A stretch of DNA of 64,000 nt from Bdellovibrionales bacterium (GTDB taxonomy: Bacteria > Bdellovibrionota > Bdellovibrionia > Bdellovibrionales > UBA1609): contig OZ251448.1 in the NCBI GenBank assembly GCA_965242515.1, forward strand, positions 163,117 to 227,116, given 5' to 3'. The position numbers were made by a program, and so were the translations under genes. The notes beneath the pieces are model-generated. The model had not been told where the DNA came from. It did not search any database and saw only the letters and a list, made by a program, of their open reading frames with translations. This document shows, piece after piece, positions 19,227-56,030 of this stretch. How positions within the stretch are numbered: position 1 is the first letter of the stretch; each line of letters opens with the position of its first letter.

Positions 19227-19346
19227 TTTGTTACTTTTAGATTTGTCACAACTTACTTAAAAGTGGCATGAGGTTTTTAAAAAAACCTTTAACACTGCCT
19301 TTATTTTTAAGCAATACAGGGTTTTAGCAATATGGAGCAAAATAAG

Positions 19347-24028: not shown

Positions 24029-25063
24029 TTATTTCCCGTATACTTTGTTGTTGTTTGTATTATTATAAAAAGAACGGTTATTGTAAGGTAGAGTTTTGTA
24101 TTTTGTACGTAAATTAAAAGCAGGGTCGTGGCTAATGTCCACTATTGTTTGTAGTTTATCTCTATGTTGGCGACAGTGTTCAGCTCTTTCATCGTCATTT
24201 ATACGGTTGAGTAAGCATTGTTTCATATTTTCTATCCGTTTTGTTTCTATAGGTATGATAGTTTCTGCAAGGTTAAGACCTGTATCACATACAGCTTGTT
24301 GGTAATTGTAGACATAAGTTTTGTGTTCTCCCCATATATTAATAGGAGGGAGTGTTTTACAAATGCGTGCTGTGTGTAGCATTTTATGCAGTAAAGGTAA
24401 AGTTTGATTTTGCGAATGGACATTATTTTTAACTACTTTATACAAAGTATTGCCATAAGCTATGTAATACATACTAATGAGATTTTCGATACTTTGGACA
24501 CTAATGTAATAGTTTTGTTCATAAATATAATTTGAAGTATTGGGATAGTTAGAAGATACCATAAGCTCTAATAGTTTTTCAAAATGCTGTATAGCAAGAC
24601 CTAGGCTTACGGGATCATCTGTTACATAATGATTTTTAAAAGTATATTTTGTTTTATAACCATGTGCCATTAGGAACACAGCTGGTATATGATCCTTTTC
24701 AACAGCTGATTTAATGTAGTTTAACCCTTCTTCCAACTGACCATGGCAAATAGTAGCTTGCCCTAAGTCTAATAGTACTTGGGGTAGCTCCGGGTACAAT
24801 CTATGGTAGTTTTTCAAATAATGATACTGATCGGTATCCATATATAGATAACAGTCCAACATTTCATAACGGGTCCGGGTATTTAGTGGGTTGTCAGAAC
24901 TAATGTCTATTTCAGGTTGGATGCGGGGTTTAGGAGTGGTAGTGTGTGTGCCAGCTTTTACCACTGTGGGCAATAGGCTATAACCTACACTCCCTATAAG
25001 TAAAAAGGCTTCTAATAAGCACCAGCTTAATAAAAATGTAACAGAAAAAGGTTTATGAGGCAT
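24029..25063 (-). CDS. hypothetical exported/membrane-anchored helical protein
   Basis: 344 aa with an N-terminal hydrophobic segment (FSVTFLLSWCLLEAFLLIGSVG). One segment is weakly TPR/Sel1-like (LDLGQATICHGQLEEGLNYIKSAVEKDHIPAVFLMAHGY). Confidence 0.45.
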   Translation of the reverse strand: MPHKPFSVTFLLSWCLLEAFLLIGSVGYSLLPTVVKAGTHTTTPKPRIQPEIDISSDNPLNTRTRYEMLDCYLYMDTDQYHYLKNYHRLYPELPQVLLDLGQATICHGQLEEGLNYIKSAVEKDHIPAVFLMAHGYKTKYTFKNHYVTDDPVSLGLAIQHFEKLLELMVSSNYPNTSNYIYEQNYYISVQSIENLISMYYIAYGNTLYKVVKNNVHSQNQTLPLLHKMLHTARICKTLPPINIWGEHKTYVYNYQQAVCDTGLNLAETIIPIETKRIENMKQCLLNRINDDERAEHCRQHRDKLQTIVDISHDPAFNLRTKYKTLPYNNRSFYNNTNNNKVYGK

Positions 25064-30630: not shown

Positions 30631-30993
30631 CTAGAACTTTACTTTAGAGCGACACCAGATTTTTGTACTCTTGGGGGTGTAAATGCCCAGTGTGAAAAGG
30701 GCAAACAATAAGTTTTCTACTAACCAGACTTTTTTTGTTTTTACCACCACCCCATCCATACAAGCTTTTTGTAAATCGGCTTTATCTAATTTAATTAAGC
30801 CCAGTAAGAGATAATGACCGTGGTGGGTGAACGAAGTTGTAAGCCCTAACTTTTGATGTTTGAGTTGTGGGGGGGGGGGTAAGGATGGGGTGGTAGCACA
30901 AGATAGTGGTAGACAGCACAAAAAAAGGATGTTGCAACACCAAAAAAGTATGTTGCAGAATTTGTTTGTTTTCATTATTATTTTGAGATACAT
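30631..30993 (-). CDS. Bor-family outer-membrane lipoprotein
   Basis: Lipobox LPLSC, then ...THHGHYLLLGLIKLDKADLQKACMDGVVVKTK...FTLGIYTPKSTKIWC. This parallels the lambda Bor pattern (HHFFVSGIGQ...ICGG...GIYTP...VYC). The probable start is ATG 30975. It contains a C11 tract. Confidence 0.7.
   Translation of the reverse strand: MYLKIIMKTNKFCNILFWCCNILFLCCLPLSCATTPSLPPPPQLKHQKLGLTTSFTHHGHYLLLGLIKLDKADLQKACMDGVVVKTKKVWLVENLLFALFTLGIYTPKSTKIWCRSKVKF
30869..30879 (-). repeat. homopolymeric C11 (G11 on + strand) inside Bor-like lipoprotein ORF
   Basis: Counted directly: tgagttgtGGGGGGGGGGGtaagg. On the coding strand it reads TTA CCC CCC CCC CCA CAA (L-PPPP-Q). Confidence 0.95.
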
Positions 30994-33163: not shown

Positions 33164-34678
33164 ATGAAAGATGGGCAAACAAAAATGCGAAAAGCAAAAG
33201 CTGGCGTGCTAGAGCTTTTACAAGAAAAAGGTCTTACTTTTGATGATGTGTTGATACTGCCTGCTTATTCTGAAGTGCTACCCTCTCAAGTGTCAACAAA
33301 AGTATCTTTAACCAATAACTTAGTGCTTAACACACCTATTTTGTCAGCGGCTATGGACACGGTGACAGAGCATAAAATGGCTCAAGTGATGGCACAAGTT
33401 GGTGGTTTGGGGATTATTCACAAAAATATGAGCATTAAAAGTCAATGCTATGAAGTTCAAAAGGTTAAAAAATACGAAAGTGGGATGATTTTAGACCCTA
33501 TTACCTTAGAGCCTGACACCCCTGTGTACTCAGCCGTTGAATTGATGAAACAACATTTTATTAGCGGAGTGCCTATTACTAAAAATGGGAAGTTAGAGGG
33601 TATTTTAACCCACAGAGACTTACGCTTTGAAACAAATATGAACCAACCCGTATCGGCTATTATGACTGCACGAGATAAACTTGTGACCGCTAAAGAGGGT
33701 GTGAGTTTAACATCTGCCAAGCAGATTTTACACAAATACCGTATTGAGAAATTACCTGTAGTGGATAGCCAAGGCTCTTTAAAAGGTCTTATTACCATTA
33801 AGGATATTGAAAAATCCACGGCCTTTCCCCATGCGACAAAAGATGCTTTTGGACGCTTATTTGTAGGTGCAGCTGTCGGAGTGCAAGAAAAAGACAAACC
33901 AAGAGTGCATCAGCTAGTAAGTGCTCAAGTGGATTTATTGTGTGTAGATACAGCTCACGGGCATTCTAAGGGGGTGTTAGATAGGGTGGCTTTTATAAAG
34001 GCGACATACCCTAATGTGATTATTATGGCTGGTAATGTGGCAACAGCTGAAGGGGCTTTGGCACTGGCAAGGGCAGGGGCTGATATTATTAAGGTGGGAA
34101 TGGGCTCTGGTAGTATTTGTACTACGAGGGTGGTATCAGGGGTGGGAGTACCCCAAGTAAGTGCTATTTTACATTGCTTGCAAGCTTTGGAAAAAAACAA
34201 ACTCTCTCAAACTATAGTGGCTGATGGGGGGTTAAGGCATTCTGGCGATATAGCCAAAGCCATTGCCTTAGGAGCTAGTGCTGTTATGGTGGGTAATATG
34301 TTGGCTGGCTCGGAAGAAAGCCCCGGAGAAACCATACTCTACCGTGGGCGGACCTATAAAGCCTATAGAGGTATGGGAAGCCTCGGAGCTATGAAAAAAG
34401 GCTCTAAAGACAGATACCGCCAAGAAGGAGTTTTTTTCACCGATAAAATGGTGCCAGAAGGTGTGGAAGGTCGTGTGCCTTATAGAGGGCAGGTTAATAA
34501 AATTTTGCATCAAATGTTGGGCGGACTCAAAGCCGGTATGGGCTATATAGGTGCAAAAAATATTAGTGATTTTCAAGAGAAAGCACAATTTATTAAAGTA
34601 AGTTCTAGGAGTTATTTGGAATCGCACATCCATGGTATTAGCATTACGAAGGAAGCTCCTAATTACCGCTTAGAGTAA
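33164..34678 (+). CDS. guaB: IMP dehydrogenase
   Basis: [10 protein letters not shown], a tandem CBS insert, catalytic [22 protein letters not shown] and GSLGAM. Confidence 0.97.
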
Positions 34679-34693: not shown

Positions 34694-34935
34694 AGGTGAA
34701 CAAACTTAAAGCTCAAAAGCTTATACCTGCGGTTTGTTACTTGCTTTGCGGGGAAAAACCGAGCTTAAAATCTTAGGACTCCGCGTTTTGCTACAAAGCG
34801 TTAAGCCTTGTGGGCTTACCGCATTGTATCAAAGCCGATACTGGTTTTGAGCATGGTTTTTTCACTTACATTAACAGAAAGTATTTATTATAGGTAGTAA
34901 TAGAAAAGAGAATGGTTGGTTGGCACTGCCGTAAA
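34694..34935. repeat. composite repeat: truncated + full A-module hairpin element and L2 linker
   Basis: A truncated copy lies at 34694-34747. The full copy at 34748-34867 runs from GGGGAAAAACCGAGCTTAAAA... to ...TTTTGAGCATGGTTTTTTCAC, with inverted ends. The L2 linker at 34884-34933 (..AGAGAATGGTTGGTTGGCACTGCC) matches the reverse complement of 60041-60092. Confidence 0.7.
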
Positions 34936-34970
34936 AATCACTTTAGAGCAATAAATAACCCCCCCTTTGG

Positions 34971-34987: not shown

Positions 34988-35132
34988 GGAGGCAGGGTTA
35001 TGTATTGCTTTTTAAGCTGATTTTGAATAAATATTTTTAAAAAAGTTTAAAAACCTTTTAAAAATTTTAAGAATAATAAGAAATTATTATTTTTAAAGTG
35101 GATAATTAAGGTAGAATAATAAGGAGATTAGA

Positions 35133-37676
35133 ATGAAATATTTACATTTAATATACTTAACATTGTTACTGTGGGGAGCTGGTATTTGTGTAGCAACAGC
35201 ACAGCCAAAAGCTACAACTGGTGAAAACAAACCACCAGAGCTTACTAATGCACAAAAGATTGAAAGGGCAAAAAAAGCAAAAGAGCAAGAAGGTTTGAAC
35301 ACATTAGCTACTGAGGTAGTTGATGAGGATGTTAAGCGAGATGCTGAAATACTTTCTGAAAAGGCTAAAGAGCTCTCACAAGAGGCTGAGCAAACGGAAC
35401 AAGCAAAAGATGATCTTACTAAAAAGGCTAAAGAGCTCTCACAAGAGGCTGAGCAAACGGAACAAGCAAAAGATGATCTTACTAAAAAGGCTAAAGAGCT
35501 CTCACAAGAGGCTGAGCAAACGGAACAAGTAAAAGACGATCTTACTAAAAAGGCTAAAGAGCTCTCACAAGAGGCTGAGCAAACGGAACAAGTAAAAGAC
35601 GATCTTACTAAAAAGACTAAAGAACTCTCACAGGGTACCAGAGATCTTTCTGAAGCAACACAAAAAATTTTAAAAGATGCAGAAGCCAAAGGAATGCCTC
35701 TTGATGAAAATATCAAAAAAGTTTTAGAGCAAGCAAAGGAGGTATCTAAGAAGGCAAAGGAGGTATCAGACACAGCTGATGATGCTGCTCAAAGTGTCAG
35801 TGAGGCATCTAGGAAGGTGAAGGAGGCATCAGACACAGCTGATGATGCTGCTCAAAGTGTCAGTGAGGCATCTAGGAAGGCGAAGGAGGCATCAGACACA
35901 GCTGATGATGCTGCTCAAAGTGTCAGTGAGGCATCTAATAAGGCAAAGGAGGTATCAGACACAGCTGATGATGCTGCTAAAGAAGCAGGAGAGCTTTCTA
36001 AACAAGCAGGAGAGCTTTCTGAACAAGCTGATGATGTATCTGAAAAAGTACAAGAAGATTCTACTTCACTAGACGAAACTCTTTCTGCATCATCTACTGA
36101 AGGTTTAAAAAAAATCTATCTTCGTAAAGAATGGGAAAAAAGAATTACTGCACTTAAACATGACTTAAAACTATTGAAAGAAAGGTTAGATACCATTTCC
36201 CCAGAGGTATTAGCAAATCCATTTAATGCTCTTTATTCTGAAAAAATAGATGTACAAATGGATGCATTAGCTGTGATTGTTTATTCTGACAAACAAGATC
36301 CTAGTTGGCATGTGCAATTAGCAGAATTTATTGAATCCTTGTCAGGAGATTCAAGCTCTGAGGGGCTTATAATACGCAATTTAGCTATTTTAGCTTTAAC
36401 TTGGTTTAAAACTCCTAACCCGGACATTCAACATGTATTAATAGATGTTATTTTAGAATATAAAGATGAAAATGAATATACAAAAAAAGTCACTGTTGAG
36501 ATTCCTAAAAGTGCTGCTTTTGCTTTAGGTTTTTCCCCCGTGCATGACGAGCAGGTAATAAATCAGCTAATAAAAATAGCTTTACAAAACCCTAATGCTT
36601 CTGTTCGTAGTTCTGCTATGTCTAGTTTAAGGTTTTTAGATGTAGATGATCCTAAATATTACAAAAAGTTAGAAAAGGGATTATCAGATCCGTTTGATTT
36701 AGTAAATACTTACACTGTCCAGCTTTTAGCTGGCGTATATGTGAATACAAAAGATGAGTGGGTGTTTCAGAAAATAATAAAAGCTCTTTCTAGCACAACA
36801 GTAAGTGTCAGAAAAATGGCTCTTAAAGCCCTTATTAAAATAAATTACATTATTCCTAATTTTGATGTTAAAAAAATTACACCCTATATTATAGATAGTT
36901 TAGAAGATTCTGACACAGGTATTAAATCTATTGCTATGTCTGCTGTTTCAAAACTACAATTAAATGATCTAAAAACCATTCGTACTGTGATGAAAGAGCT
37001 ACTTCAAACCACCAATGCAACACAAAATAAAGTATTATTTATTACCAGTTTAGGTGATTTACAAGTTAAAAGTAATTGGATTAATAATAACCTACTTACT
37101 TTTTTAGAAGATGCATCAGCTGAAATACGCATGGCGACAGTCAAAACATATAAAAAAATTAAACCAAAATCTTCTAAAATTCATATTAAATTAATTGATA
37201 GGCTATTGGATGCTGATCCAAAAATACAATGGGCAACTATTTGGGCTATTGACAGTATTCGCCCTACAAGTAACAAGTTTTATAATAAATTAGCTGATAA
37301 ATTATCTCAATTAGACCCATATATTCGGGTAGCTACTTTACAGTTTTTACAAAGAAGTAAGGTGAAAAATACAAAAATTACGACAGCTTTATCTCAATTA
37401 GTATCTAACAAAGAAGATCAACAACAAAACCCTGATGAAATAAGATTAGAAGCCCTTAAGGCTTTAAAGAATATGGACTGGTATAAAAGTACAAGTGAAG
37501 AAGTAGCAACAGAAGAACAAAAAAAAGATATAAAAAACGAATTAGTTAAAGCATTAGAAGACTCCAACCCAGAAGTAAGAAAAGCCGCAGCCAGTGCTTT
37601 AAACGAAGCAGGCGTATTGAGCCTTGAGCTTTTGAAATATAATGCATTATGTATTCTAGCTAATAAATGGTGTTAA
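35133..37676 (+). CDS. large secreted protein: coiled-coil 21-aa tandem repeats + C-terminal HEAT repeats
   Basis: 847 aa with a signal peptide (MKYLHLIYLTLLLWGAGICVATA/QP). There are two arrays of 21-aa repeats. The C-terminal ~500 aa contain HEAT-like units (DPKIQWATIWAIDSIRP, DPYIRVATLQFLQRS, DSNPEVRKAAASALNEAG). The protein ends ...NALCILANKWC. Confidence 0.85.
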   Translation: MKYLHLIYLTLLLWGAGICVATAQPKATTGENKPPELTNAQKIERAKKAKEQEGLNTLATEVVDEDVKRDAEILSEKAKELSQEAEQTEQAKDDLTKKAKELSQEAEQTEQAKDDLTKKAKELSQEAEQTEQVKDDLTKKAKELSQEAEQTEQVKDDLTKKTKELSQGTRDLSEATQKILKDAEAKGMPLDENIKKVLEQAKEVSKKAKEVSDTADDAAQSVSEASRKVKEASDTADDAAQSVSEASRKAKEASDTADDAAQSVSEASNKAKEVSDTADDAAKEAGELSKQAGELSEQADDVSEKVQEDSTSLDETLSASSTEGLKKIYLRKEWEKRITALKHDLKLLKERLDTISPEVLANPFNALYSEKIDVQMDALAVIVYSDKQDPSWHVQLAEFIESLSGDSSSEGLIIRNLAILALTWFKTPNPDIQHVLIDVILEYKDENEYTKKVTVEIPKSAAFALGFSPVHDEQVINQLIKIALQNPNASVRSSAMSSLRFLDVDDPKYYKKLEKGLSDPFDLVNTYTVQLLAGVYVNTKDEWVFQKIIKALSSTTVSVRKMALKALIKINYIIPNFDVKKITPYIIDSLEDSDTGIKSIAMSAVSKLQLNDLKTIRTVMKELLQTTNATQNKVLFITSLGDLQVKSNWINNNLLTFLEDASAEIRMATVKTYKKIKPKSSKIHIKLIDRLLDADPKIQWATIWAIDSIRPTSNKFYNKLADKLSQLDPYIRVATLQFLQRSKVKNTKITTALSQLVSNKEDQQQNPDEIRLEALKALKNMDWYKSTSEEVATEEQKKDIKNELVKALEDSNPEVRKAAASALNEAGVLSLELLKYNALCILANKWC
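35355..35640 (+). repeat. in-frame 63-nt tandem repeat array 1 (about 4.4 units)
   Basis: The GCTAAAGAGCTCTCACAAGAGGCTGAGCAAACGGAACAAG.AAAAGA.GATCTTACTAAAAAG unit starts at 35364, 35427, 35490 and 35553, with a degenerate copy at 35616. It encodes KAKELSQEAEQTEQ(A/V)KDDLTK. Confidence 0.95.
35733..35990 (+). repeat. in-frame 63-nt tandem repeat array 2 (about 4 units)
   Basis: TCAGACACAGCTGATGATGCTGCT... recurs at 35766, 35829, 35892 and 35955 and encodes SDTADDAAQSVSEASRK.KEA. It is followed by a 21-nt duplication (GGAGAGCTTTCT.AACAAGC x2) near 35988-36030. Confidence 0.95.
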
Positions 37677-37719
37677 ATATATTAATAAATTTAAAATGTT
37701 TAAAAAGGAGGCTATAAAA

Positions 37720-38679
37720 ATGTATTTTTTACAAGTATTTTTTACGAGTATTTTTTTCTTAGCAGTTTTATTTGGTCCATCAATAGGGCTTAGTTCTACA
37801 ACTACAACACAACAAGGAATGGCACGCCCTATTCTTTTAGATGAATTACAAAGCTTTGATATAGATGTAAGAAAAAGTGCCATTCGCTCTTTTCCCCTAT
37901 CTAAATTAAACAATAAAGAATATATAACCTTACTTGCTCAAATTTTATTAGAAGATAATGTTGCTGAAGTGCGTCAAGAAATGGCACTTTACCTTTTAAA
38001 TAACATAAACGAGCTAGCTATTACAGAAGAGTTATCTTCTATAATAGCTCAATCAGCCACTCGTAATACGGATAAAAAAACAAAAGAATTATCTTTAAAA
38101 CTAACAAAAGGACTAGGACAACCAAAGCTTGTTAATGAGTTATATAGTTCTGATGTAGATGTAAGAAAAAAAACTATTCGCTCTTTCCCTATATCTAAAT
38201 TAAAAGAAAAAAAATATGTAGACATATTAGCTCAGATTTTAACAGAAGATAGTGTTACTCCACTGCGTCGAGAAGTGGCACTTTACCTTTTAGCTCACAT
38301 CAACAAATTACCGAGTACAAATATTATACACACACTATCTACGCAAGCCATTCGCGATGCGGATAGTAGTGTAAGATCACTTGCTGTACAAGGGATAGCC
38401 TCTTTTCGCCCTAAGACTCAAAAGTTACAAAGCATGCAAACAAGTGCTTTATTAGAGGCTTTATCTGATAAGAATGAAGGGGTGCGTCTTCAAGCTATTT
38501 TAGGTTTAGGGCAAAATGCTCATGTTGCACAAAATGTCTCAGTTCGCCATAATTTACTTAACACAGCTCGTTATGATATAGATCCAAAAATAAGAGAACA
38601 GGCTGATACAGTTTTGATACAGCTTACTGGTGGCTCTTCTGTAAGACCCCTTTGTGAAAGGGTGTTTTCTCTTAAATAA
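37720..38679 (+). CDS. secreted HEAT-repeat protein with internal duplication
   Basis: The start is set at the second ATG (track frame 37696 + 24), preceded by AAGGAGG. The signal peptide is MYFLQVFFTSIFFLAVLFGPSIGLSS. There is a duplicated ~95-aa module (LDELQSFDIDVRKSAIRSFPLSKLNNKEYITLLAQILLED.. versus VNELYSSDVDVRKKTIRSFPISKLKEKKYVDILAQILTED..). The protein ends ...RPLCERVFSLK. Confidence 0.8.
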   Translation: MYFLQVFFTSIFFLAVLFGPSIGLSSTTTTQQGMARPILLDELQSFDIDVRKSAIRSFPLSKLNNKEYITLLAQILLEDNVAEVRQEMALYLLNNINELAITEELSSIIAQSATRNTDKKTKELSLKLTKGLGQPKLVNELYSSDVDVRKKTIRSFPISKLKEKKYVDILAQILTEDSVTPLRREVALYLLAHINKLPSTNIIHTLSTQAIRDADSSVRSLAVQGIASFRPKTQKLQSMQTSALLEALSDKNEGVRLQAILGLGQNAHVAQNVSVRHNLLNTARYDIDPKIREQADTVLIQLTGGSSVRPLCERVFSLK

Positions 38680-38751
38680 AAAAATATTTTTTTGTAGTTA
38701 TAAGAAAATTTACTTGGTTTAGGTGTTGTACTATAGTAAAGTAAGGGGGAT

Positions 38752-39279
38752 ATGATTTTTAAAACAATATTTACTCTATTTAAACTGGTATTTAAGCTAA
38801 TTTTATTGAAGGTAAAAAGGCTTTGTGCTTTGTTGCATGGTGCTTTGCCAAGCCGTGTCAAAAAAGTTAATGGTATGACTTTTGTAGAGATTTTGGTTGT
38901 TTTAACAATTATTGCAGGTATTGCTTCTTTAGGTATTACGAAGTATATGGCACAGTTAGATAAAGCTAAGGTGAAGCAGGCGAAGATTTTAATCACTCGT
39001 ATTGCCGAGGCTTTTGAGACTTTTTACATGGATTGTTCTTATTATCCTTCTACAGATGAAGGGTTATCGGCTTTAGTGCTAGCTCCGGAGCGTTGTGGTG
39101 AGGCATGGGGCCCGGAGCCTTATTTAAAAAACGGCAAAATCCCCAAAGACCCTTGGAAAAACGACTTTATCTACCGTTACGACACGACTACAGGTCGTTT
39201 TGAGATCCTGAGTTTAGGCAAAGGAGGGGTAGAAGGTGGTAAGGGTGTGTCGGCTGATATTTCTTCGCAAGAGATATAA
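38752..39279 (+). CDS. gspG: type II secretion major pseudopilin GspG
   Basis: Prepilin motif ..KKVNG/MTFVEILVVLTIIAGIASLG with Glu at +5. GspG-specific core YYPSTDEGLSALV...PYLKNGKIPKDPWKNDFIYRYD..GRFEILSLGKGGVEGG. The ATG at 38752 (GGGGGA Shine-Dalgarno upstream) gives a 41-aa leader; internal TTG starts at 38830, 38833 or 38845 would give 10-15 aa. Confidence 0.9.
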   Translation: MIFKTIFTLFKLVFKLILLKVKRLCALLHGALPSRVKKVNGMTFVEILVVLTIIAGIASLGITKYMAQLDKAKVKQAKILITRIAEAFETFYMDCSYYPSTDEGLSALVLAPERCGEAWGPEPYLKNGKIPKDPWKNDFIYRYDTTTGRFEILSLGKGGVEGGKGVSADISSQEI

Positions 39280-40021
39280 TAATATCTCCACCTGTTTTTC
39301 TCAAAGGTGGTGTTTTTTTTCTAATAGATTTATTAAGAACAACAAAGCTATGACCTTGTTAGAAATAGTGGTTGTTATGACCTTACTGGCTGGTTTTTTT
39401 ATTGTAGGTGTGCCTCTTATTAAAAAACGAGACAATGCGGTTAAACAAATGTTAAGGCGTATAACAGCCATTAATCGGCAGTTAGACAGTCAGGCTCGGC
39501 TGAAAGGAGTAACTTACAGGTTGGTATTTTCTATAGATTCTAAGGATAGTTCTTGGTGGGTAGAAAAAAAACAGACGCCCCAGCTTAAAAAAAAAATCTC
39601 TTCAGAAAATAATAACACCAGCGATAATACAAGTGATAATACCAGCGATAACACAAGTCCCACAGATGATGTATCAGATACATCTGATAGTCGCCATTTA
39701 GATCGGTTAGCAAGCTCTTCTGCTATGGATCAAGTTCGGCAAGAGTTATTGGAAGGTAACCTTAAAGCTCGCATCTTTAAAAAAGACACAAGCATTTTAA
39801 AAAAAGCACAAACTTTACCTTTGGGCTTGGTTTTTGAAAGTGTATCTTTCAATAAAGGCAAAGATGTTGTTTCTCAGGGTTTAAGTTATATTTATTATAC
39901 TCCGGGTGGGCAGTTTAATAAAGTTTTGTTAAAAATAAAGGGGCGGAGCAGGTATTGGTCGTTATTATTTAATCGTTTAAACGGGGAGTTAGATATATTT
40001 CAGGAGAACAAACAATGGTAA
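39236..40021 (+). CDS. gspH: type II secretion minor pseudopilin, GspH-like
   Basis: Prepilin-like N-terminus ..KNNKA/MTLLEIVVVMTLLAGFFIVGVP with Glu at +5, in the position after gspG. An in-frame insert NNNTSDNTSDNTSDNTS comes from 12-nt repeats. The start is uncertain: ATG 39236 overlaps gspG by 44 nt, and ATG 39350 is the Met of MTLLE. Confidence 0.65.
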   Translation: MVRVCRLIFLRKRYNNISTCFSQRWCFFSNRFIKNNKAMTLLEIVVVMTLLAGFFIVGVPLIKKRDNAVKQMLRRITAINRQLDSQARLKGVTYRLVFSIDSKDSSWWVEKKQTPQLKKKISSENNNTSDNTSDNTSDNTSPTDDVSDTSDSRHLDRLASSSAMDQVRQELLEGNLKARIFKKDTSILKKAQTLPLGLVFESVSFNKGKDVVSQGLSYIYYTPGGQFNKVLLKIKGRSRYWSLLFNRLNGELDIFQENKQW

Positions 40022-40035
40022 CCATTAAATTAATT

Positions 40036-40108
40036 TTTTTACTATCATCATTTCTGCGTCAGTCGTCATTCCTGCGTCAGTCGTCATTCCTGCGTAGGCA
40101 GGAATCCA
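40036..40108. repeat. C-module repeat: 18-nt direct repeats + ATTCCTGC-GTAG-GCAGGAAT hairpin
   Basis: TCATTTCTGCGTCAGTC GTCATTCCTGCGTCAGTC GTCATTCCTGCGTAGGCAGGAATCCAG. A related double, inverted copy lies at 55835-55950. Confidence 0.8.
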
Positions 40109-40125
40109 GTAAGTGCAACTTTTTA

Positions 40126-40234
40126 AGTGAGAAAACCAAGTCAAAATCTTTGGACTGCGGTTTACCGCAAAGTGAAAGCCCAAGGCTACTACTTTGCGTT
40201 AAATCCGAACTCGTTTTGAATTGGTTTTCTCACT
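40126..40234. repeat. A-module palindromic (MITE/REP-like) element
   Basis: Terminal inverted repeats AGTGAGAAAACC (40126-40137) and GGTTTTCTCACT (40223-40234). The interior is nearly identical to that of 43386-43498 (..TTTGGACTGCGGTTTACCGCAAAGTG...GGCTACTACTTTGCGTTAAATCCGAACTCGTTTTGA..). Confidence 0.85.
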
Positions 40235-40332
40235 ATTTAAAGAGTTACATTTTTTTAGTAAAATTAATTAGTATAACATGAAACATACAATGATAAATAA
40301 AATTTACACTGGTTTATTACATGTTCTTTTTT

Positions 40333-40454
40333 GTAGAGAGAAAAACCATGCTCAAAACGAGTTCGGATTTGAACACAATGCGGAAAGCTCTAGGAGCTTT
40401 ACGCGTTGTGGCAAAACGCATGTCCGAGCTTTTGAGCTCGGTTTTTCCCTCTAC
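40333..40454. repeat. A-module palindromic element (opposite orientation)
   Basis: GTAGAGAGAAAAACC (40333-40347) and GGTTTTTCCCTCTAC (40440-40454). The interior reads CATGCTCAAAACGAGTTCGGATTTGAACACAATGCGGAAAGC...GAGCTTTTGAGCTCG. Confidence 0.85.
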
Positions 40455-40574
40455 AATGTTAGAGCAATAGATAAACATACAACCCTTGCCTATAACAAAA
40501 TTATCAGTGATTAATATTAGACAGAGCATATATTAAGTAATAATTTATGTTAAAAACAAAATAAAGGAAAGTGT

Positions 40575-41081
40575 ATGATGAAAGGTTTTACTTTGATTGA
40601 AATGATAGTGGCTTTAATGATCCTATCTAGCTCTGTTATACTACTTTCTCGCATGAAGTCAGGCAATAAAAACCGAATCGATAAATCCTATCACTATCAC
40701 AAAGCTGTGTTACTGCTAGAGCAAAAAATAACAGAGTTGGAGTTAGAATGGAGTAGTCAGAGTTTCGACTCTATTCCAACAGAACAAAAAGGGCAATTTA
40801 CAACGCAAAAGGATTTTTCATGGAGTGTGAAAACAAAACCTCTATCTATGCCTTCTGCGGAGGATATGTTTAAATCCTTAGGTGCTGATAGTGATATTGT
40901 GCTTTATATAATACGTACCACTTCAGAGTTTTTAACATCTTCTATTAAAGAGGTGAAAGTCACCGTGCATTATAATAAACATAAAAAGAAAAGCTCTTAC
41001 TCTCTTAGCACCTACATTGTGGACTACAGTAAAAATATACCATTTGCACAACTGCTTTTACAATTACAAAACAGCAATTAA
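40575..41081 (+). CDS. gspI: type II secretion minor pseudopilin GspI
   Basis: Canonical short leader and cleavage site MMKG/FTLIEMIVALMILSSS. It is 168 aa and sits in the position between the H-like and J-like genes. Confidence 0.75.
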   Translation: MMKGFTLIEMIVALMILSSSVILLSRMKSGNKNRIDKSYHYHKAVLLLEQKITELELEWSSQSFDSIPTEQKGQFTTQKDFSWSVKTKPLSMPSAEDMFKSLGADSDIVLYIIRTTSEFLTSSIKEVKVTVHYNKHKKKSSYSLSTYIVDYSKNIPFAQLLLQLQNSN

Positions 41082-41107
41082 TATATAGATTATATAATAG
41101 GTTATTT

Positions 41108-42019
41108 ATGAGGTTACAAAAGTATTGTTATTTTTTTAAAGGCAAGGTTATTTGTCAGATTATTTGCCAGATTATTTGTCAGGCTATTAGTAAGGTTTTT
41201 TTTAAAAGTACTTACAAGTCAAAAGCTTTTACTTTATTAGAAGTGATGATAGCTATGACTTTATTTTCTGTTATGGCGTTATTTTTAATGCGTATTACGG
41301 ATTCAGGGGTTAGGTATCAAAAAATTATTACAAAAAATGTTAAAAACATCCGAAGTATCAGGTCAGTATGGCAAGTTTTGAGACAAGATTTTTATAATGT
41401 TTTTTTAGTAAAAAATAAACATGTTTTACTCCATAGTGAGCTTATGAGATTAGCTCCAGATCGTAAAAACAATAACCTTTCACGAAGAGGAGTTCCCTCT
41501 CCTGAAGGTTTAGATGATTATGGGCGAAGTCGCAATGTTCCTAAAGAATCATCACCTAGACCTCCTACAAAACCTCCTTTAGTGGGGCAATTTAAAGGCA
41601 CTGATGAGCAGGTATATTTTACCACTTTATCTCATGGACACACGAGTGTTTTATCACCTCAAAGTGATAGTACTTTGGTGTTTTATTATTTAAAAGCTTG
41701 CCCTCATAAAGACACCAACAAAGCCCAGCGTTGTTTATGGCGAAAAAGTTTTTTGGATATAACTGCTGACCCTGAAAAGGCTGAAAATGGAACAGAGTTT
41801 TTGTTGTTAGAAAATGTTAACAAAATTAAGTTAGCCTACTTTAATATTTTAGATAACGAGTGGAAAAACCAGTGGCCCATGGGGGTGCAATCCAGTAACT
41901 TGTTACCTGTTGCGGTAAAAATTGTATTAGTTTTTCAAAACAAAAAAAAACAGATTGTTACTAAGCAGTTAATACTACCTATTCATAGGAACTACATTGC
42001 TTTACGGATGTTGAGGTAA
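41108..42019 (+). CDS. gspJ: type II secretion minor pseudopilin GspJ
   Basis: Prepilin motif ..YKSKA/FTLLEVMIAMTLFSVMALFL with Glu at +5, about 260 aa mature size, in the J position. The 40-aa N-terminal extension contains ICQIICQIICQA from 12-nt repeats, and there is no alternative ATG/GTG/TTG closer to the motif. Confidence 0.7.
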   Translation: MRLQKYCYFFKGKVICQIICQIICQAISKVFFKSTYKSKAFTLLEVMIAMTLFSVMALFLMRITDSGVRYQKIITKNVKNIRSIRSVWQVLRQDFYNVFLVKNKHVLLHSELMRLAPDRKNNNLSRRGVPSPEGLDDYGRSRNVPKESSPRPPTKPPLVGQFKGTDEQVYFTTLSHGHTSVLSPQSDSTLVFYYLKACPHKDTNKAQRCLWRKSFLDITADPEKAENGTEFLLLENVNKIKLAYFNILDNEWKNQWPMGVQSSNLLPVAVKIVLVFQNKKKQIVTKQLILPIHRNYIALRMLR

Positions 42020-42059
42020 AAATTACATGTTTAAAAGTTGTATTATAAACAATAGATAT

Positions 42060-43307
42060 ATGAAAAACCAAAAAGGGATGGCTATTATTATGGTACTCTC
42101 TACTTTGTTGTTTGTGTTTTTACTGATTCAAGAAACTGTGTTTGAAACACGAGTAGAACATGCTGTATCCAGTAAAGAGCTCCACGATTTACAAGCTTAC
42201 TATATGGCTAAAGCAGGTATGGAACTTAGTTTGTTAAGAATTCGAACTTACAACACACTAGCTGAAAAAATAACAGGTATGAAAGAGGCATTATTTATGC
42301 GACCTTATTTAGACTTAATGTGGCGACTTCCCTTTGGCTGGCCCCCTTTGTTAGTACCACTAGAGGAGGAGCAGGCAGAAGATGACTCACATTCAAGCAC
42401 AAAGCAAAAATCCCTTTTTAACAAGGGTGGCTATACCACTTTTTTACAAACCACAGGTGGGCGTATTGATGTCAATAATTTAAGCTCCCCTATCCCTCAA
42501 TTAAAAAAGTGGACTTATTTTATACTGTTTGCGTTAATTAAAAAATTACAAGATGAAAATAACACCCTTAAGGCTTTAACGGATTCAGATATTTCTAAAT
42601 TGTTAAATAATATCAGCGATTGGATAGATTTAGACTCGATGCAACAAACGGAAGCTGGTATTAGCACTTTGCCAGAAAACATTTTGTACGAGTTACCCAC
42701 TCGCCCCCTCAACCGCAAGCTGATTAACATGCAAGAGTTGTTACCTGTTAAAGGTATGACACATCAACTCTACCAAGCCCTAAAGCCTTTTATCACAGTT
42801 TTTGGAGAAAACACACTCAACCTGAATACTCTACCAGCACTGCTGATGCAAAGCTTGCACCCTGATTTAAATGCTCAAGTTACTCAAAGTATTACCGATA
42901 AAACGCATAAAATACTTAACCCCCTCATGCTGAATTGGGCTTTATTTACGCAAAGCATAAAAGCAGAAGGCTTAGGTCATATTGTGGAAGACTGGCAAAA
43001 CAACCCTCGCTTCATATTTGAAGCCACTGGAGATGATGGTAAAGTTGGGACTATGAAAAATTTTGTACATTTTAACTCACCGTATAATTTTAAAATTGTA
43101 AGTATCGGTCGTGCTGGTGGGAGTCAGAAAACGATTACGGCTATATATATAGACTGGAAGGGTTTATTTAAGCACACTCAAAAGCTATCAAATATATTGA
43201 GTAAAAGTAGCAGTAGCAAAAGGGGCAAGGGCAGGGGTAGTAACTTCAGTTCTCCTCCCTTAGAGTTAAATAATCCTTCAATAATTTACTGGAAAGTTAG
43301 CTCTTAA
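42060..43307 (+). CDS. gspK: type II secretion minor pseudopilin GspK
   Basis: The start is set at MKNQKG/MAIIMVLSTLLFVFLL. GspK-like features are present: no Glu at +5, GRIDVNNLS and NTLNLNTLPALLMQSL (NxNTA-type helix-hairpin motifs). Mature size is about 410 aa. Confidence 0.75.
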   Translation: MKNQKGMAIIMVLSTLLFVFLLIQETVFETRVEHAVSSKELHDLQAYYMAKAGMELSLLRIRTYNTLAEKITGMKEALFMRPYLDLMWRLPFGWPPLLVPLEEEQAEDDSHSSTKQKSLFNKGGYTTFLQTTGGRIDVNNLSSPIPQLKKWTYFILFALIKKLQDENNTLKALTDSDISKLLNNISDWIDLDSMQQTEAGISTLPENILYELPTRPLNRKLINMQELLPVKGMTHQLYQALKPFITVFGENTLNLNTLPALLMQSLHPDLNAQVTQSITDKTHKILNPLMLNWALFTQSIKAEGLGHIVEDWQNNPRFIFEATGDDGKVGTMKNFVHFNSPYNFKIVSIGRAGGSQKTITAIYIDWKGLFKHTQKLSNILSKSSSSKRGKGRGSNFSSPPLELNNPSIIYWKVSS

Positions 43308-43385
43308 GAGGGTAGTCTAGAGAGCAATAGGTGAAAATTTTAGAGGTACAGGTGAAAAAACTTAAAATTCAAAAGCTTTTTTCGC

Positions 43386-43498
43386 AGAGGGGAAAACCGA
43401 GCTCAAAAGCTTTGGACTGCGGTTTACCGCAAAGTGTTAGCCAAAGGCTACTACTTTGCGTTAAATCCGAACTCGTTTTGAGCATGGTTTTCCCCTCT
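43386..43498. repeat. A-module palindromic element
   Basis: AGAGGGGAAAACC (43386-43398) and GGTTTTCCCCTCT (43486-43498). It lies in the gspK-gspL spacer and is the source of the spurious ORF 43331..43573. Confidence 0.85.
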
Positions 43499-51843: not shown

Positions 51844-53808
51844 ATGAAAAAATTACTAGCTATTTTACTTAGTGTGGGTTTTGTTAAAGCATCATTCGCT
51901 ATAGATTCTACCGGAGTGTCGTCTGCTGGTTTTACTGGAACAACATTTAGTGCGGATGCTAATATGAGTAATTCTGTTTCAGAAATAAAACCAGAAAAAG
52001 ATAAGCATTTTAATATACCTTCGTGGTTAGAGGAACATCAAATATCTCGTGATTATCAAGAAGCTTATTTTATTGGTAGGCAATTAACATATTTATATGT
52101 TTTAGATGTGATAGGTCGTGATGAAGTAAATTCTACTCAAGCTAAAGAGATATTTTTAATGATTAAGCAAGCACTATATAGTCCAAGTGCGTTGATACAA
52201 TTAGAAGCTTTATATATTTTAAAACATTGGACTTTCCCTGCAAAAATGTTTTATAAAAAAATTGCACAGCTTGCTGTATTTAGTAAAAATAGTTTAGTGG
52301 CTAATGAAGCTCTTTGGCTTTTAGAAGAACATGCTACTTCAGTAACTTTTCCATTCCATGTACAACAGATATTAGTGTTAGCTTTAAAAAGCAACTTTGT
52401 AGGTTATCGGAAAAGAGTATTTAACATTTTATCTAGTCAGAAGAAGATAGATCCTTCAGTTAAATCTAAACTACATGTAGCTGTAGAAAAAGAAAATTAT
52501 CTAAAACAAGTTATAGAATTAAAACCAGAGGTTATGCAGTCTTTAAAATCTGACTTGTTAGAAGAATCTCCATCATTTGTAAAGCACGCTATGGCACAAT
52601 TATCCAACATTGATCGGAGTAACACACAAGTATCTCAATTTTTAGCTAGTTTATTAACTAAAGAGTTATCTAGTTTTCAATTTGCAAAACTTATTGAAGT
52701 CATTGAGGCTTTAAGAATATTTAATGCAGATACGGTTCCTCCTATTTTACATTTTATGAGATATAAATCTATGAATAAACTTTGGCAGATTTTAAGAATG
52801 CTTGAAAAAACCCCCATGTCATGGCACGCACAAATATTTCATAATATAAAAAACATTGTACTTTATTTTGATACAAGGCATCAAAACTTAGCTTATTATG
52901 TATTACAAAAAATATTATGGTACAATCCTCAAGTGCGAAAACATATTAGAACTATTTTTTATTCTAATGACCCCACACATGTTGATTTAAGAAATTTGTT
53001 ATTTCATTCTGCTTCTCGTTACAGGGTGGCTGGGTTGTATCTTTTAAGTGAGTTACATTCTGTATCTTATGATGCAATTAAAGAGTACTTATTAGATTCT
53101 TTATTTGATAAATTTCCGTTTAAAAATTTTATGTCTTTATTAGCTATAGAGCAGTTATCATTTATCAATGAAGATATTAATGTACAAAAGTTACTTATAA
53201 AAAAGCTTTACGATAATGATTCTAGTGTGTTTGTGCGATCATTTATTATCCGTTCGTTACGAAACAAGAAATTTACTGATTTATCTATATTACGCAATAT
53301 GTTGCATTTCGCTTTGTTTGATTCTTCTCAAGCCGTGCGAACACATGCTATTTATATACTGGGAGACATGCAACATTCAGAACATTTATTAGAATTTCGC
53401 CATACAGTAGTTGATGTATTAACTAGTCTACTTAAAAATCCTGTTCTGGGTATAATAGGATCTACTAAGCCAGATTTAAAAATAAATGATATATTTTCAT
53501 CTAGAAATGATACACAAAATACCACGGGTACAAATAAAGTATTATTTATTATTGAGTGGAAGGCTATTATATCAGCTCTGGGTGAGTTAAATGTACAAAA
53601 ACCTAAAGTATGGAAAGCATTAGCAAAGTTTTTAAATACTTCTAATGTAACACATCAAAAAACGGTACTTGATACATTAAAAAAATTACAACCTACGGAT
53701 CCTGAAATTATAAAAACAATGCAAACTATAGAAGGTAAAAAAACATTAAACACAACATCAACAGATAATGTATCAAATATTGATTCTTGTAGAACAGCTT
53801 TTAACTAA
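51844..53808 (+). CDS. secreted HEAT-like repeat protein, tandem paralogue 3
   Basis: The start is set at ATG 51844 (MKKLLAILLSVGFVKASFA/ID); the track ORF opens at TTG 51775. It contains PSWLEEH and is colinear with paralogues 1 and 2 throughout. It ends ...IDSCRTAFN. Confidence 0.8.
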   Translation: MKKLLAILLSVGFVKASFAIDSTGVSSAGFTGTTFSADANMSNSVSEIKPEKDKHFNIPSWLEEHQISRDYQEAYFIGRQLTYLYVLDVIGRDEVNSTQAKEIFLMIKQALYSPSALIQLEALYILKHWTFPAKMFYKKIAQLAVFSKNSLVANEALWLLEEHATSVTFPFHVQQILVLALKSNFVGYRKRVFNILSSQKKIDPSVKSKLHVAVEKENYLKQVIELKPEVMQSLKSDLLEESPSFVKHAMAQLSNIDRSNTQVSQFLASLLTKELSSFQFAKLIEVIEALRIFNADTVPPILHFMRYKSMNKLWQILRMLEKTPMSWHAQIFHNIKNIVLYFDTRHQNLAYYVLQKILWYNPQVRKHIRTIFYSNDPTHVDLRNLLFHSASRYRVAGLYLLSELHSVSYDAIKEYLLDSLFDKFPFKNFMSLLAIEQLSFINEDINVQKLLIKKLYDNDSSVFVRSFIIRSLRNKKFTDLSILRNMLHFALFDSSQAVRTHAIYILGDMQHSEHLLEFRHTVVDVLTSLLKNPVLGIIGSTKPDLKINDIFSSRNDTQNTTGTNKVLFIIEWKAIISALGELNVQKPKVWKALAKFLNTSNVTHQKTVLDTLKKLQPTDPEIIKTMQTIEGKKTLNTTSTDNVSNIDSCRTAFN

Positions 53809-55442
53809 CAAAGCGTTGCGATTTTTTTGTCATCGAAGGGGTATTTTTTATCACCTATTATTTGGTATGTTTCATGCCCTTTACCAGCGATAAGTATAAT
53901 ATCTTTTGGTTGAGCAAGTTTTAAGGCAAATTGTATGGCTTTTTTTCTATCTGGTTCTATAATGAATTTGCTTTTATCTTTTACTTCTTTTAAAGAGTCG
54001 TTAATAATAGATAGAGGATTTTCGTGGCGTGGGTTATCAGAGGTTAGTATGACTTTGTCTGATAGAAGCTGTGCTACTTGAGCCATTTTTGTTCTTTTAT
54101 CTTTATCCCTTTCTCCGCCACAGCCAAATACACAAAATAACTGTCCCTTGTTTTTATGTTGTTTTAAAAATTTAAGGGCTACTTGTAAAGCACCCGGTGT
54201 GTGAGCATAGTCTATAAAAACCTTTGGTTTTTTTACCTTATTGTTAGTTGTTTTTTGTGCTTTTGAGGGTGATGCTGAGTGTTCATTATAAGGGAGTGTA
54301 TGAGGAGAGAGGGGAGTAAGAGCTTCCATTCTGCCTTTTACACCTGTAAAGAAGGGTAGTATTGCCACTATATCGTCCATAGCAAAGCCTGCAGAGTGTA
54401 CACAACAAATAGCTGCAACAATATTAGAAACATTATATTTACCCATAAGTGGCGTGAAGATTTTTATTTTTCGACCTTTAACAAGTAGTTCAAATGCTGA
54501 GCCAGATAAATCGCTGGATAATATTTTCCACTGAAATTGACTACTACTTTCCCCATAAGAAATATAAGGAGTATTGATTTTTCTAGTTAAAGCTACTCCA
54601 TAAGAATCATCAAAATTACAAACAGATAAAAAGTGATCTGTTTTATTTTGCCCTATTTTATTTTGCTTCATGTTGATAAATAATTTTTGTTTTGCTTGAA
54701 AATAGTTTGACATGTTTTTATGGTAATCTAAATGGTCTTGTGTCAGGTTGGTGAACACCCCTAAATTAAAATCCACACCCCCTGTTCTTTGTTGATCTAA
54801 GCCAATACTGGATACTTCCATAACAATAGCTTGTGCTGATTGTTGATAAAAATAATTTAACAAAGCATAAAGCTCTGTTGCACTAGGGGTTGTTAGGGTA
54901 TTACTACTTTTTATAATCACATTGTTTGTCAGTTGTTTTGTTGTTTTGTTATTTATTTTTTCTGCTGATAATACATCAGAATCCTTATTAAAAAGGTGAG
55001 GTTGTATGAGGCGGTTATGAATAGTGCCTATAAGCCCTACCTTCCAACCTAAAGCAGATAGTAAAAAAGCTACAATATGAGATACGGTTGTTTTACCATT
55101 AGTACCCGTAACACCCACACAAAACATTTTTTGACTTGGAAAATTATAAAACTTATTTAGCAATAAAGATAAAGTTTTTCTAGTATCGGGAGTAACATAC
55201 ACTAAGCCTTTGAATTTTATATCTTTTATTGTATGTAGTGCTTTTTTGTTTTCTACTACTAAAACAGATGCCCCTTTGTTAATGGCTTCTTTTAAGTACA
55301 AATGACCGTTAGTTTTATGCCCCTTTAATGCAACAAACACACAACCATCTATAACTTTACGAGAATCAGTTACAATTTTTTTATTTAGTGCTTTTTTATT
55401 TATTGCTCTGAAGATACTGTTACGGCAATGTCCCTCAATCAT
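53805..55442 (-). CDS. murE: UDP-N-acetylmuramoyl-L-alanyl-D-glutamate--2,6-diaminopimelate ligase
   Basis: GVTGTNGKTT P-loop, DYAHTPGAL and the DAP-specificity motif DNPR (LTSDNPRHENP). Two low-complexity insertions are present. It is not embedded in a dcw cluster here. There is a 4-nt convergent overlap with paralogue 3. Confidence 0.92.
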   Translation of the reverse strand: MIEGHCRNSIFRAINKKALNKKIVTDSRKVIDGCVFVALKGHKTNGHLYLKEAINKGASVLVVENKKALHTIKDIKFKGLVYVTPDTRKTLSLLLNKFYNFPSQKMFCVGVTGTNGKTTVSHIVAFLLSALGWKVGLIGTIHNRLIQPHLFNKDSDVLSAEKINNKTTKQLTNNVIIKSSNTLTTPSATELYALLNYFYQQSAQAIVMEVSSIGLDQQRTGGVDFNLGVFTNLTQDHLDYHKNMSNYFQAKQKLFINMKQNKIGQNKTDHFLSVCNFDDSYGVALTRKINTPYISYGESSSQFQWKILSSDLSGSAFELLVKGRKIKIFTPLMGKYNVSNIVAAICCVHSAGFAMDDIVAILPFFTGVKGRMEALTPLSPHTLPYNEHSASPSKAQKTTNNKVKKPKVFIDYAHTPGALQVALKFLKQHKNKGQLFCVFGCGGERDKDKRTKMAQVAQLLSDKVILTSDNPRHENPLSIINDSLKEVKDKSKFIIEPDRKKAIQFALKLAQPKDIILIAGKGHETYQIIGDKKYPFDDKKIATLC

Positions 55443-55519: not shown

Positions 55520-55695
55520 CCTTGCACTTCCTACCTTCGTCCAATCCATAAACTTAATAAATGTACACTTTAGAGGGGAAAAAAAGATGTACTATTAAAT
55601 AGAAAGCAGGAGGGGGACATTTTCGCCTTCAAGGGGGTGCTTTTGATACAATCCTAGCACGCCATACCTTCATCCTGTCTATATACACTATTGCT
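55520..55695. repeat. linker-type repeat modules
   Basis: CTACCTTCGTCCAATCCATAAACTTAATAAATGTACACTTTAGAGGGGAAAAA resembles 12715-12765. GATACAATCCTAGCACGCCATACCTTCATCC resembles the reverse complement of 4165-4200. Confidence 0.6.
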
Positions 55696-55810
55696 AGGTG
55701 AGAAAACCTCACTCCAGAGTTCAAACATGCAGTTTGTCACAACGCGTTAAGCTTTCAGCTTACCACATTGTATCAAATCCGAACTCGTTTTGAGCATGGT
55801 TTTCTCACCT
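55696..55810. repeat. A-module palindromic element
   Basis: AGGTGAGAAAACC (55696-55708) and GGTTTTCTCACCT (55798-55810). The interior arms are of the TCACTCCAGAG... and ...CGAACTCGTTTTGAGCAT types. Confidence 0.85.
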
Positions 55811-55834: not shown

Positions 55835-55950
55835 AGCTGTCATTGCTACTTAGCTGTCATTCCCGTGCAGACGGGAATCCAGGATTGTACGCGTGAAAAG
55901 TACATTCTGGATTCCTGCCTCCGCAGGAATGACGGCTGACGCAAGAATGT
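55835..55950. repeat. C-module double copy arranged as a ~115-nt palindrome
   Basis: GCTGTCATTCCCGTGCAGACGGGAATCCAGG ... CTGGATTCCTGCCTCCGCAGGAATGACGGC. It contains two 8-bp-stem hairpins in inverted orientation. Confidence 0.8.
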
Positions 55951-55951
55951 C

Positions 55952-56030
55952 ACTTTAAATTAAAGAGCAGGAGGGGATGTTCGTAAGAGTCCAAGCGAAG
56001 TGTGTCTTTAAGGACCTATCCCTCCCAACC
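55952..56030. repeat. B-module palindromic repeat (full copy)
   Basis: ACTTTAAATTAAAGAGCAGGAGGGGATGTTCGTAAGAGTCCAAGCGAAG...GGACCTATCCCTCCCAACC. The left half is the reverse complement of the 4106-4148 type. Confidence 0.75.

Follow-up and report, generated by a model that had tools for sequence, protein, structure and literature searches.

The type II secretion system (T2SS) locus described here lies in a 64,000-nt stretch of DNA (hereafter the window) from a Bdellovibrionales bacterium (GCA_965242515.1, contig OZ251448.1, positions 163,117 to 227,116 of the forward strand), in which the genes gspG to gspN are flanked on both sides by genes encoding HEAT-repeat proteins with putative signal peptides. 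The closest described system is the T2SS of the Bdellovibrionales and Leptospira type, with which the locus shares gspG-N content and order, a GspL resembling PilM and a GspN of the Leptospira type, with orthologues of each gene in B. bacteriovorus and ~85 other loci; it differs in that the cluster is cut from gspE-F, has repeats in the gspH-gspI and gspK-gspL spacers, and has two HEAT genes at its 5' end and three at its 3' end. Substrate genes beside T2SS genes are known, namely pulA with pulC-O in Klebsiella and sslE/yghJ with gsp in E. coli, so that linkage of a substrate gene to a T2SS is not unprecedented. The pulA and sslE loci likewise hold a Sec-exported protein in or beside the T2SS operon that is inherited with the operon; however, PulA and SslE are enzymes and N-terminal lipoproteins, whereas the proteins in question here are enzyme-less alpha-solenoids with a C-terminal cysteine (Cys) tail belonging to a large dispersed family, and we know of no enzyme-less HEAT scaffolds in the gene position of a T2SS substrate.

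Short C-terminal signatures with an invariant Cys, present on many Sec-exported proteins of one lineage, have been described as MYXO-CTERM tags, which together with myxosortase feed a T2SS route (PMC11980579; 10.1101/2023.06.07.544157), and as GlyGly-CTERM (rhombosortase) on surface-retained T2SS substrates (PMC12889589). The Cys tail of the HEAT proteins is similar in this respect, and the known systems pass proteins on to the T2SS to be displayed at the surface; their tags, however, are tripartite (motif, transmembrane (TM) helix and Arg-rich cluster), whereas the tail found here has 0-8 mostly polar or basic residues after its Cys and lacks both TM helix and Arg cluster, and for this reason is not a member of either family. 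None of the NCBIfam sorting-signal (CTERM) models matches it, and no CPBP or rhombosortase-type partner turned up, no search having been aimed at such a partner. The tail may nonetheless work in a way comparable to the known Cys-containing C-terminal sorting signals. As far as we know, the conserved placement of HEAT genes between gspF and gspG and the common Cys tail are apparently undescribed, and the T2SS part itself is ordinary.

Gene order around gspG in the window and in relatives

The window (G+C ~35%, from a contig of 1.76 Mb) has 13 co-directional genes on the + strand between guaB (33164-34678) and the convergent murE (53805-55442, -). Among these, an earlier sequence-only reading had recognized gspG-H-I-J-K-L-M-N at 38752-47474 and five flanking genes for HEAT proteins with Sec signals (Table 1), and both assignments held: open reading frames (ORFs) and Pfam/NCBIfam models agree on the gsp genes, with gspM assigned by position only, and HEAT_2 was detected in four of the five HEAT proteins, the product of 47620-49566 being assigned by paralogy and its structural model. 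Homologues were called using Pfam, NCBIfam, tblastn, phmmer and a profile search run exhaustively against 1.84 billion representatives; loci of relatives carry L numbers (such as L087), and 82 of them were taken from the surroundings of GspK homologues. Of these homologues, the nearest are 37-40% identical and originate from 'Bdellovibrionales bacterium' metagenome-assembled genomes (MAGs) with chromosomes of 1.3-2.3 Mb.

Two HEAT genes, encoding proteins of 847 aa (HEAT847) and 327 aa (HEAT327), are located directly 5' of gspG. The corresponding order in L087 is gspF, HEAT, HEAT608, HEAT274, gspG, gspH, where HEAT608 (18022-19848(-)) is the orthologue of HEAT847 (33% identity over 494-517 aa, E 3e-72, ending ..VCAMYAEWC) and HEAT274 (17214-18038(-)) is the orthologue of HEAT327 (31%, E 2e-17 and 3e-16 in different comparisons, ending ..SSVRPLCERIFY). 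One such gene is present in L003, encoding the signal-peptide protein HEAT453 (6027-7388; HEAT_2 5e-22) directly 5' of gspG, which aligns with HEAT327 up to the tail (..TCKKVFSS vs ..LCERVFSLK), and no remnant of a second HEAT gene was found in the interval between gspF and HEAT453. As judged from sequence similarity, this comparison shows that, for a small subclade of reduced genomes, the upstream HEAT pair is a conserved member of the gsp neighbourhood with a place between gspF and gspG. The window leaves the L087 order just 5' of HEAT847, beside a copy of a ~125-nt repeat, and HEAT847-HEAT327-gspG-N therefore form one co-directional block beside guaB. Searches of the window HEAT and ankyrin (ANK) proteins against the 82 gsp loci (tblastn, phmmer) gave no HEAT match beyond L003, and no HEAT gene was found near ~85 other Bdellovibrionales gsp loci, including L089 despite its equally similar GspK; a word-index search with HEAT327 recovered solely proteins of its own genome.

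HEAT847 consists of a putative signal peptide, two adjacent tandem-repeat arrays of about five 63-nt (21-aa) units each (35289-36053; acidic/lysine-rich, coiled-coil-like) and a HEAT solenoid, and in its L087 orthologue the arrays are replaced by a stretch rich in Lys, Ala and Gln. A 226-aa minus-strand ORF (35093-35773) is a shadow of these repeats. HEAT847 was also considered as a lipoprotein (..GAGIC), a reading rejected on two grounds: its lipobox departs from the canonical form, and the corresponding site in the L087 orthologue holds no Cys.

The position of the pair is relevant to the proposal, raised as an alternative in the sequence-only reading, that HEAT847 and/or HEAT327 are accessory T2SS parts such as a GspC-like connector, a pilotin or a substrate-docking scaffold. 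The genes are found between gspF and gspG in L087 and directly 5' of gspG in three genomes, the N-terminal hydrophobic segment of HEAT327 could be an uncleaved anchor, gspC was seen in no locus, and pilotins built as alpha-solenoids (TPR) are known from type IV pilus secretins. Yet most relatives run the same T2SS without such genes, making a core machine part unlikely: ~85 loci have the same G-N set without HEAT genes, and ~55 have gspE-F directly 5'. Furthermore, the pair evolves fast (31-33% identity vs 78% for GspG), the variable repeat region of HEAT847 is missing from its orthologue, and the Cys tail is common to many unlinked paralogous and non-homologous proteins, which would be unexpected for a machine subunit. 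An accessory role thus appears quite improbable. A role as cargo is favoured over it because linked and unlinked HEAT proteins have a common Cys tag, fitting one export class, and HEAT847 and HEAT327 would then be cargo whose genes are inherited, and possibly expressed, together with those of the pseudopilins.

Regarding the three downstream HEAT genes, their products (HP1, HP2 and HP3) are mutually 46-49% identical, HP2 and HP3 truly beginning at ~49619 and ~51844. Their similarity and distribution show, at the level of sequence comparison, that they arose by local tandem amplification within a family that is dispersed and evolves fast. Outside the source genome, the search of 1.84 billion representatives gave four clear homologues (P0036-P0039) and a weaker tagged HEAT protein (P0049), while a word-index search with HP2 found own-genome proteins only and a metagenome scan with an alignment of the HP paralogues found nothing. 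Family members in relatives are located near pheS, ftsI or nusA, not near gsp: they lie ~21 kb and ~420 kb from gsp in the L003 genome, which has another HEAT array elsewhere, and form an array of four beside nusA, ~250 kb from gsp, in the L087 genome. The bracketing of gsp by HEAT genes, emphasized in the sequence-only reading, is present in the window but results largely from the rearrangement of a genome rich in repeats, because HP1-3 are unlinked in relatives and ~85 loci are HEAT-free; synteny with gsp extends to the upstream pair (both genes in L087, one in L003) but not to the downstream three. The model of HP1 is an all-alpha solenoid of ~33 helices with a pLDDT of 64 (80-90 in the N-terminal half), the best Foldseek neighbours of which in the PDB are the PP2A A subunit, karyopherins and beta-catenin, and its tail lies in a low-confidence segment after the solenoid.

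The C-terminal cysteine tail

Each of the eight HEAT and ANK proteins encoded in the window with a putative signal peptide carries a Cys among its last 8 residues, vs 4 of the 42 other ORFs (Fisher p = 9e-7; 2e-5 with paralogues counted once). In addition to the five flanking proteins, this set includes three encoded elsewhere in the window, namely one HEAT and two ANK proteins (Table 1), where the sequence-only reading had counted four. HEAT847, HEAT327, HP2, HP3 and the unlinked HEAT protein have HEAT_2/HEAT matches over the gathering score, and all eight have a positive n-region, a hydrophobic core (12-aa Kyte-Doolittle mean 2.2-3.5) and AxA-like sites.

The tail of the HEAT proteins follows the pattern [S/T/A/L]-C-[K/Q/E/R/S]-[K/N/R/G/T]-x-F and then 0-4 residues, with the core [S/T]-C-[K/Q]-[K/N]-x-F, and one subtype ends in ..WC. 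It recurs in all family members retrieved from two other genomes, where the Cys likewise lies among the last 8-9 residues (SSCKKTFEK, NSCQKIF, GSCKKAFKPRA, GSCKNTFKTPA, ETCKKVF, RSCKNVF and ISCEKIFNS are examples), and its C and F are invariant in an alignment of 8 family members with 21-49% identity. The tail Cys is the sole Cys of the mature chain in most proteins, and HEAT327 has a single Cys, located in its tail (..SSVRPLCERVFSLK). Among 206 ORFs in the relevant loci of three genomes, the pattern was found in 20, all of them signal-peptide HEAT/ANK proteins, and a stricter pattern was found in 8 of 1285 ORFs (window and L001-L083), seven of the eight being HEAT proteins.

A signal-peptide protein without detected HEAT, encoded ~2.4 kb 3' of gspN in a more distant Bdellovibrionota MAG (L022, 11659-12786), has a tail that fits the motif (..TCENIFL), so the tag may reach beyond the HEAT family. 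Thiol-redox genes (Redoxin/AhpC-TSA, DsbH-like thioredoxin) are located 1-8 kb from tagged HEAT genes in the L003 genome (Table 1), maybe by chance; these would be relevant if the lone tail Cys were redox-handled.

The tagged HEAT and ANK solenoids may constitute one export or handling class, whose members would be transported by Sec, fold in the periplasm and then cross the outer membrane via the T2SS. Since the tail Cys is conserved, unpaired and on a flexible tail, it points to covalent chemistry rather than folding, and would probably be used to tether or lipidate the protein, to form a disulfide with another molecule, or for some similar covalent handling. T2SS secretion is the likeliest route because it is the obvious outer-membrane route for folded periplasmic proteins and because two members are encoded in the operon. 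We hold with about even confidence that the tagged alpha-solenoids are an export class, likeliest passed across the outer membrane by the T2SS with the operon pair as cargo; T2SS-dependent secretion or surface display would be the most likely fate of the tagged proteins in general, a view taken with confidence even at best and otherwise a little short of it. The more specific suggestion that the TM-less tail is a new C-terminal sorting or attachment tag for T2SS secretion or covalent surface display, marking a lineage-specific class of Sec-exported HEAT (and perhaps ANK) solenoids of reduced-genome Bdellovibrionales with its founders between gspF and gspG, is considered unlikely.

Several points weigh against T2SS export of the tagged proteins. 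Their tie to the T2SS is a putative one drawn from sequence, and their signal peptides are likewise putative, having been assessed by eye and hydropathy only. The two ANK proteins (..DKCN, ..QWCG) have a terminal Cys without the C-x-x-x-F core, most tagged genes are unlinked to gsp, and shared ancestry alone could explain the linkage of the upstream pair, because this is seen in only three genomes that are mutual nearest relatives here. Co-transcription of HEAT327 and gspG is only putative because these two genes are separated by a weak hairpin (38648-38662) and by a site resembling a promoter (38709-38737), and gspD/E/F/O have no copy within the window, completeness of the T2SS being predicted only. 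Finally, we know of no linear signal in T2SS substrates, which makes such substrates hard to predict. If the tagged proteins are indeed T2SS cargo, the tag would offer something rare, a sequence-level handle on how T2SS cargo is chosen or proteins are tethered at the surface, and would be a minimal, TM-less addition to the Cys-containing C-terminal sorting signals, and it bears on how reduced-genome relatives of Bdellovibrio deploy eukaryote-like ANK/HEAT proteins without type III or type IV secretion systems.

Alternatively, the HEAT and ANK proteins could reside in the periplasm or envelope as inhibitors, immunity proteins or scaffolds with no functional tie to the T2SS, their adjacency to gsp being a matter of inherited order and rearrangement. 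Eight of ~50 window genes belong to this class and relatives carry arrays at several sites, and both the unlinked state of the HP family elsewhere and the ~85 HEAT-free gsp loci are in keeping with residence in the envelope, as are periplasmic ANK proteins, which are Sec-exported repeat proteins too. One of these, Bdellovibrio Bd3460, is a periplasmic ankyrin protein for self-protection, and to our knowledge neither a common C-terminal Cys tail nor T2SS linkage has been reported for Bd3460 or for RARP-1 of Rickettsia. RARP-1 is described as a Sec-exported periplasmic ANK protein (10.1101/2022.02.23.481736). On the other hand, both HEAT orthologues stayed 5' of gspG in the same orientation while gspI-J-K (L087) or gspE-F (window) moved, and a conserved unpaired Cys would be unusual for plain residents of an oxidising periplasm. 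Residence in the envelope is less likely than T2SS export, but its probability is still substantial.

The eukaryote-like repeats and the small genome might also suggest that the tagged proteins are effectors aimed at a eukaryotic host, with the tail Cys prenylated or palmitoylated by host enzymes; a bacterial effector bearing a CaaX box is known in Legionella AnkB. As with CaaX or C(x)3X boxes, the Cys is close to the C-terminus of eukaryote-like repeat proteins, beside basic residues, and a few tails finish exactly C-x-x-x-F. The distance from Cys to C-terminus, however, is 0-8 residues (Cys at -1 to -9), which departs from CaaX geometry, the Cys is followed by K/Q/E and K/N, which puts basic or polar residues in the 'a' positions, and putative Sec signal peptides are present on the proteins. 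Moreover, delivery by the T2SS into a host cytosol is not established for this group. We therefore consider host targeting very unlikely, and export by the T2SS is the reading retained for the tagged proteins.

Identity and break-up of the gsp cluster

Regarding the T2SS genes themselves, model matches and gene order indicate that the gspG-N block is a T2SS, an ordinary member of the Bdellovibrionales / Leptospira type. GspG exceeds the equivalog cut-off and is 82% identical to L003 and 78% to L087, its mature form beginning near 38872 (G|MTFVEIL). Prepilin sites read in the translations bore out the Glu+5 reported from the sequence-only reading for G (G|MTFVE), H (A|MTLLE), I (G|FTLIE) and J (A|FTLLE), and the GspK site G|MAIIM lacks Glu+5, as expected for GspK. 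Orthologues of gspH sit between gspG and gspI across Bdellovibrionales, and PF21687 was detected in 32/32 GspK homologues. GspL combines a PilM-type, actin-like domain in the cytoplasm with a TM segment and a periplasmic portion, ends in a Lys-rich tail, and is 50-58% identical to the L003 and L004 orthologues; GspN is 53% identical to its orthologues in the same two loci. The protein in the gspM position had no match in Pfam, NCBIfam or PDB sequences (Pfam with 8 orthologues, profile against PDB), and its single-sequence AlphaFold model, of low confidence, has two helices, one of them N-terminal and the other long, together with a small alpha/beta part.

The protein in the gspL position scores better with PilM_2 than with T2SSL and GspH and GspI have weak ComG matches, which might indicate a type IV pilus or competence system. 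This identity is effectively refuted: GspG is over its equivalog cut-off, the GspJ, GspK and GspN models match, the relatives have a T2SSE/T2SSF pair directly 5', and neither PilN/O/P/Q nor a PilA-type pilin is present. The profile models therefore do not reassign gspG-N to a pilus or Com system, an outcome that the sequence-only reading had named as speaking against it.

Three side observations concern the Gsp proteins. Mature GspG has two Cys (..YMDCSYYP..APERCGEAWG..) that are kept in L087, and a Cys pair is also present in GspJ; classical GspG has a Ca2+ site, not a disulfide. GspH has a low-complexity insert (NTSDNTSD...; NNTSDNTSDNTSDNTS), and the Lys-rich C-terminal tail of GspL is long, close orthologues having no such tail.

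The order gspG-H-I-J-K-L-(M)-N is kept across the 82 GspK-homologue loci, out to B. bacteriovorus, with gspE-gspF directly 5' of gspG in ~55 of them. Comparison with these loci shows that gspG-N is the intact distal part of a cluster that is normally gspE-F-G-H-I-J-K-L-M-N in Bdellovibrionales, and detachment from gspE-F is a derived, lineage-specific break, because ~55 related loci have gspE-gspF directly 5' of gspG. The sequence-only reading was thus right to describe the block as detached; likewise, its statement that secretin, ATPase, GspF and prepilin peptidase are absent from the window agrees with tblastn searches using the GspE/GspF of relatives, which found no homologues in the window, and with Pfam scans, which found no secretin, ATPase or peptidase A24 among its other large ORFs.

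Other break points occur in small-genome relatives, where the cluster starts at gspI (L008, L009, L013, L088 and L091), at gspJ (L004) or at gspK (L007). The gspI-J-K block of L087 lies between two Transposase_31 (Rpn-type) genes (7321-8355 and 11727-12722), and phage-integrase fragments precede gspI at the joint in L088 (7264-8432). It is likely that these Transposase_31 and integrase genes brought about the fragmentation of T2SS operons in the clade. Should the linkage of HEAT genes and gsp be merely historical, the locus would still be a clear case of T2SS operon fragmentation via mobile repeats and transposases in shrinking genomes.

Regarding the repeats, at least two short intergenic families with internal hairpins are present in both orientations, which look like miniature inverted-repeat transposable elements (MITE) or repetitive extragenic palindromes (REP). 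Copies are found in the gsp spacers and between HP2 and HP3, and the repeats of the gspH-gspI spacer include a terminator-like hairpin (40424-40441). A promoter scan gave 73 sites vs 72.5 expected and thus no enrichment, and an Rfam scan had three tRNAs as its sole matches, the intergenic repeats having no known RNA family.

Features of the window and its surroundings

Table 1. Positions of the gsp genes, HEAT/ANK genes and repeats in the window, and of thiol-redox genes in the L003 genome
Feature	Positions	Strand	Evidence and remarks
Signal-peptide ANK protein	2700-4055	+	Pfam; ends ..FDKCN
Signal-peptide ANK protein	11492-12583	-	Pfam; ends ..HQWCG
Signal-peptide HEAT protein	13872-15146	-	HEAT_2/HEAT above gathering score; tail ..NCKKLFKWC
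~125-nt repeat copy (MITE/REP-like)	34783-34958		Between guaB and HEAT847
HEAT847	35133-37676	+	HEAT_2 5e-23; tail ..LCILANKWC
HEAT327	37696-38679	+	HEAT_2 3e-18; N-terminal hydrophobic signal or anchor
gspG, major pseudopilin	38752-39279	+	TIGR01710 113.8 bits (cut-off 88.85); PF08334 8e-31
gspH-like minor pseudopilin	39236-40021	+	N_methyl/prepilin motif; weak gspH/ComGD matches
Two inverted ~125-nt repeat copies and short GC-rich repeat	40067-40452		gspH-gspI spacer
gspI-like minor pseudopilin	40575-41081	+	N_methyl 4e-5; XpsI 7e-7 and gspI 3e-5, below cut-off
gspJ, minor pseudopilin	41108-42019	+	PF11612 5e-8; TIGR01711 1.5e-7
gspK, minor pseudopilin	42027-43307	+	T2SSK_1st 2e-9; NF037980 1e-19
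~125-nt repeat copy	43363-43521		gspK-gspL spacer
gspL-type platform protein	43632-45608	+	PilM_2 6e-10; T2SSL 2.5e-3
gspM-position gene, bitopic product	45658-46467	+	Position, topology and conservation between gspL and gspN in relatives
gspN, Leptospira-type	46467-47474	+	TIGR04411 1.6e-11, 44.3 bits, just under cut-off 50
HP1, paralogue 1	47620-49566	+	Below Pfam cut-off; paralogy and model; signal peptide; tail ..DTCKGVFR
HP2, paralogue 2	49619-51553	+	HEAT_2 1.5e-8; tail ..TACQKAFH
HP3, paralogue 3	51844-53808	+	HEAT_2 4e-8; tail ..DSCRTAFN; converges on murE
Further ~125-nt repeat copies	55695-55810, 60130-60300		Window
Second repeat, ~45-55 nt	4105-4149, 11380-11424, 15445-15500, 51670-51724, 55946-56000		Window
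Thiol-redox genes	L086 9225-9830; L083 2427-4823; L084 2471-2935		L003 genome

The window and the L003 genome have in common an uncharacterized protein (344 aa, 24029-25063(-), in the window; 278 aa, L084 15906-16742(-)) and a Bor-family lipoprotein (30631-30993(-) in the window, L084 21518-21832(-)), both of which lie no more than ~25 kb from a gene of the HP family. These shared neighbours suggest that the wider region is loosely conserved, with its gene order shuffled, and do not suggest operon membership. A close GspK relative (39% identical) is encoded on a sponge metagenome contig (L092), a mere hint of the habitats of this clade.

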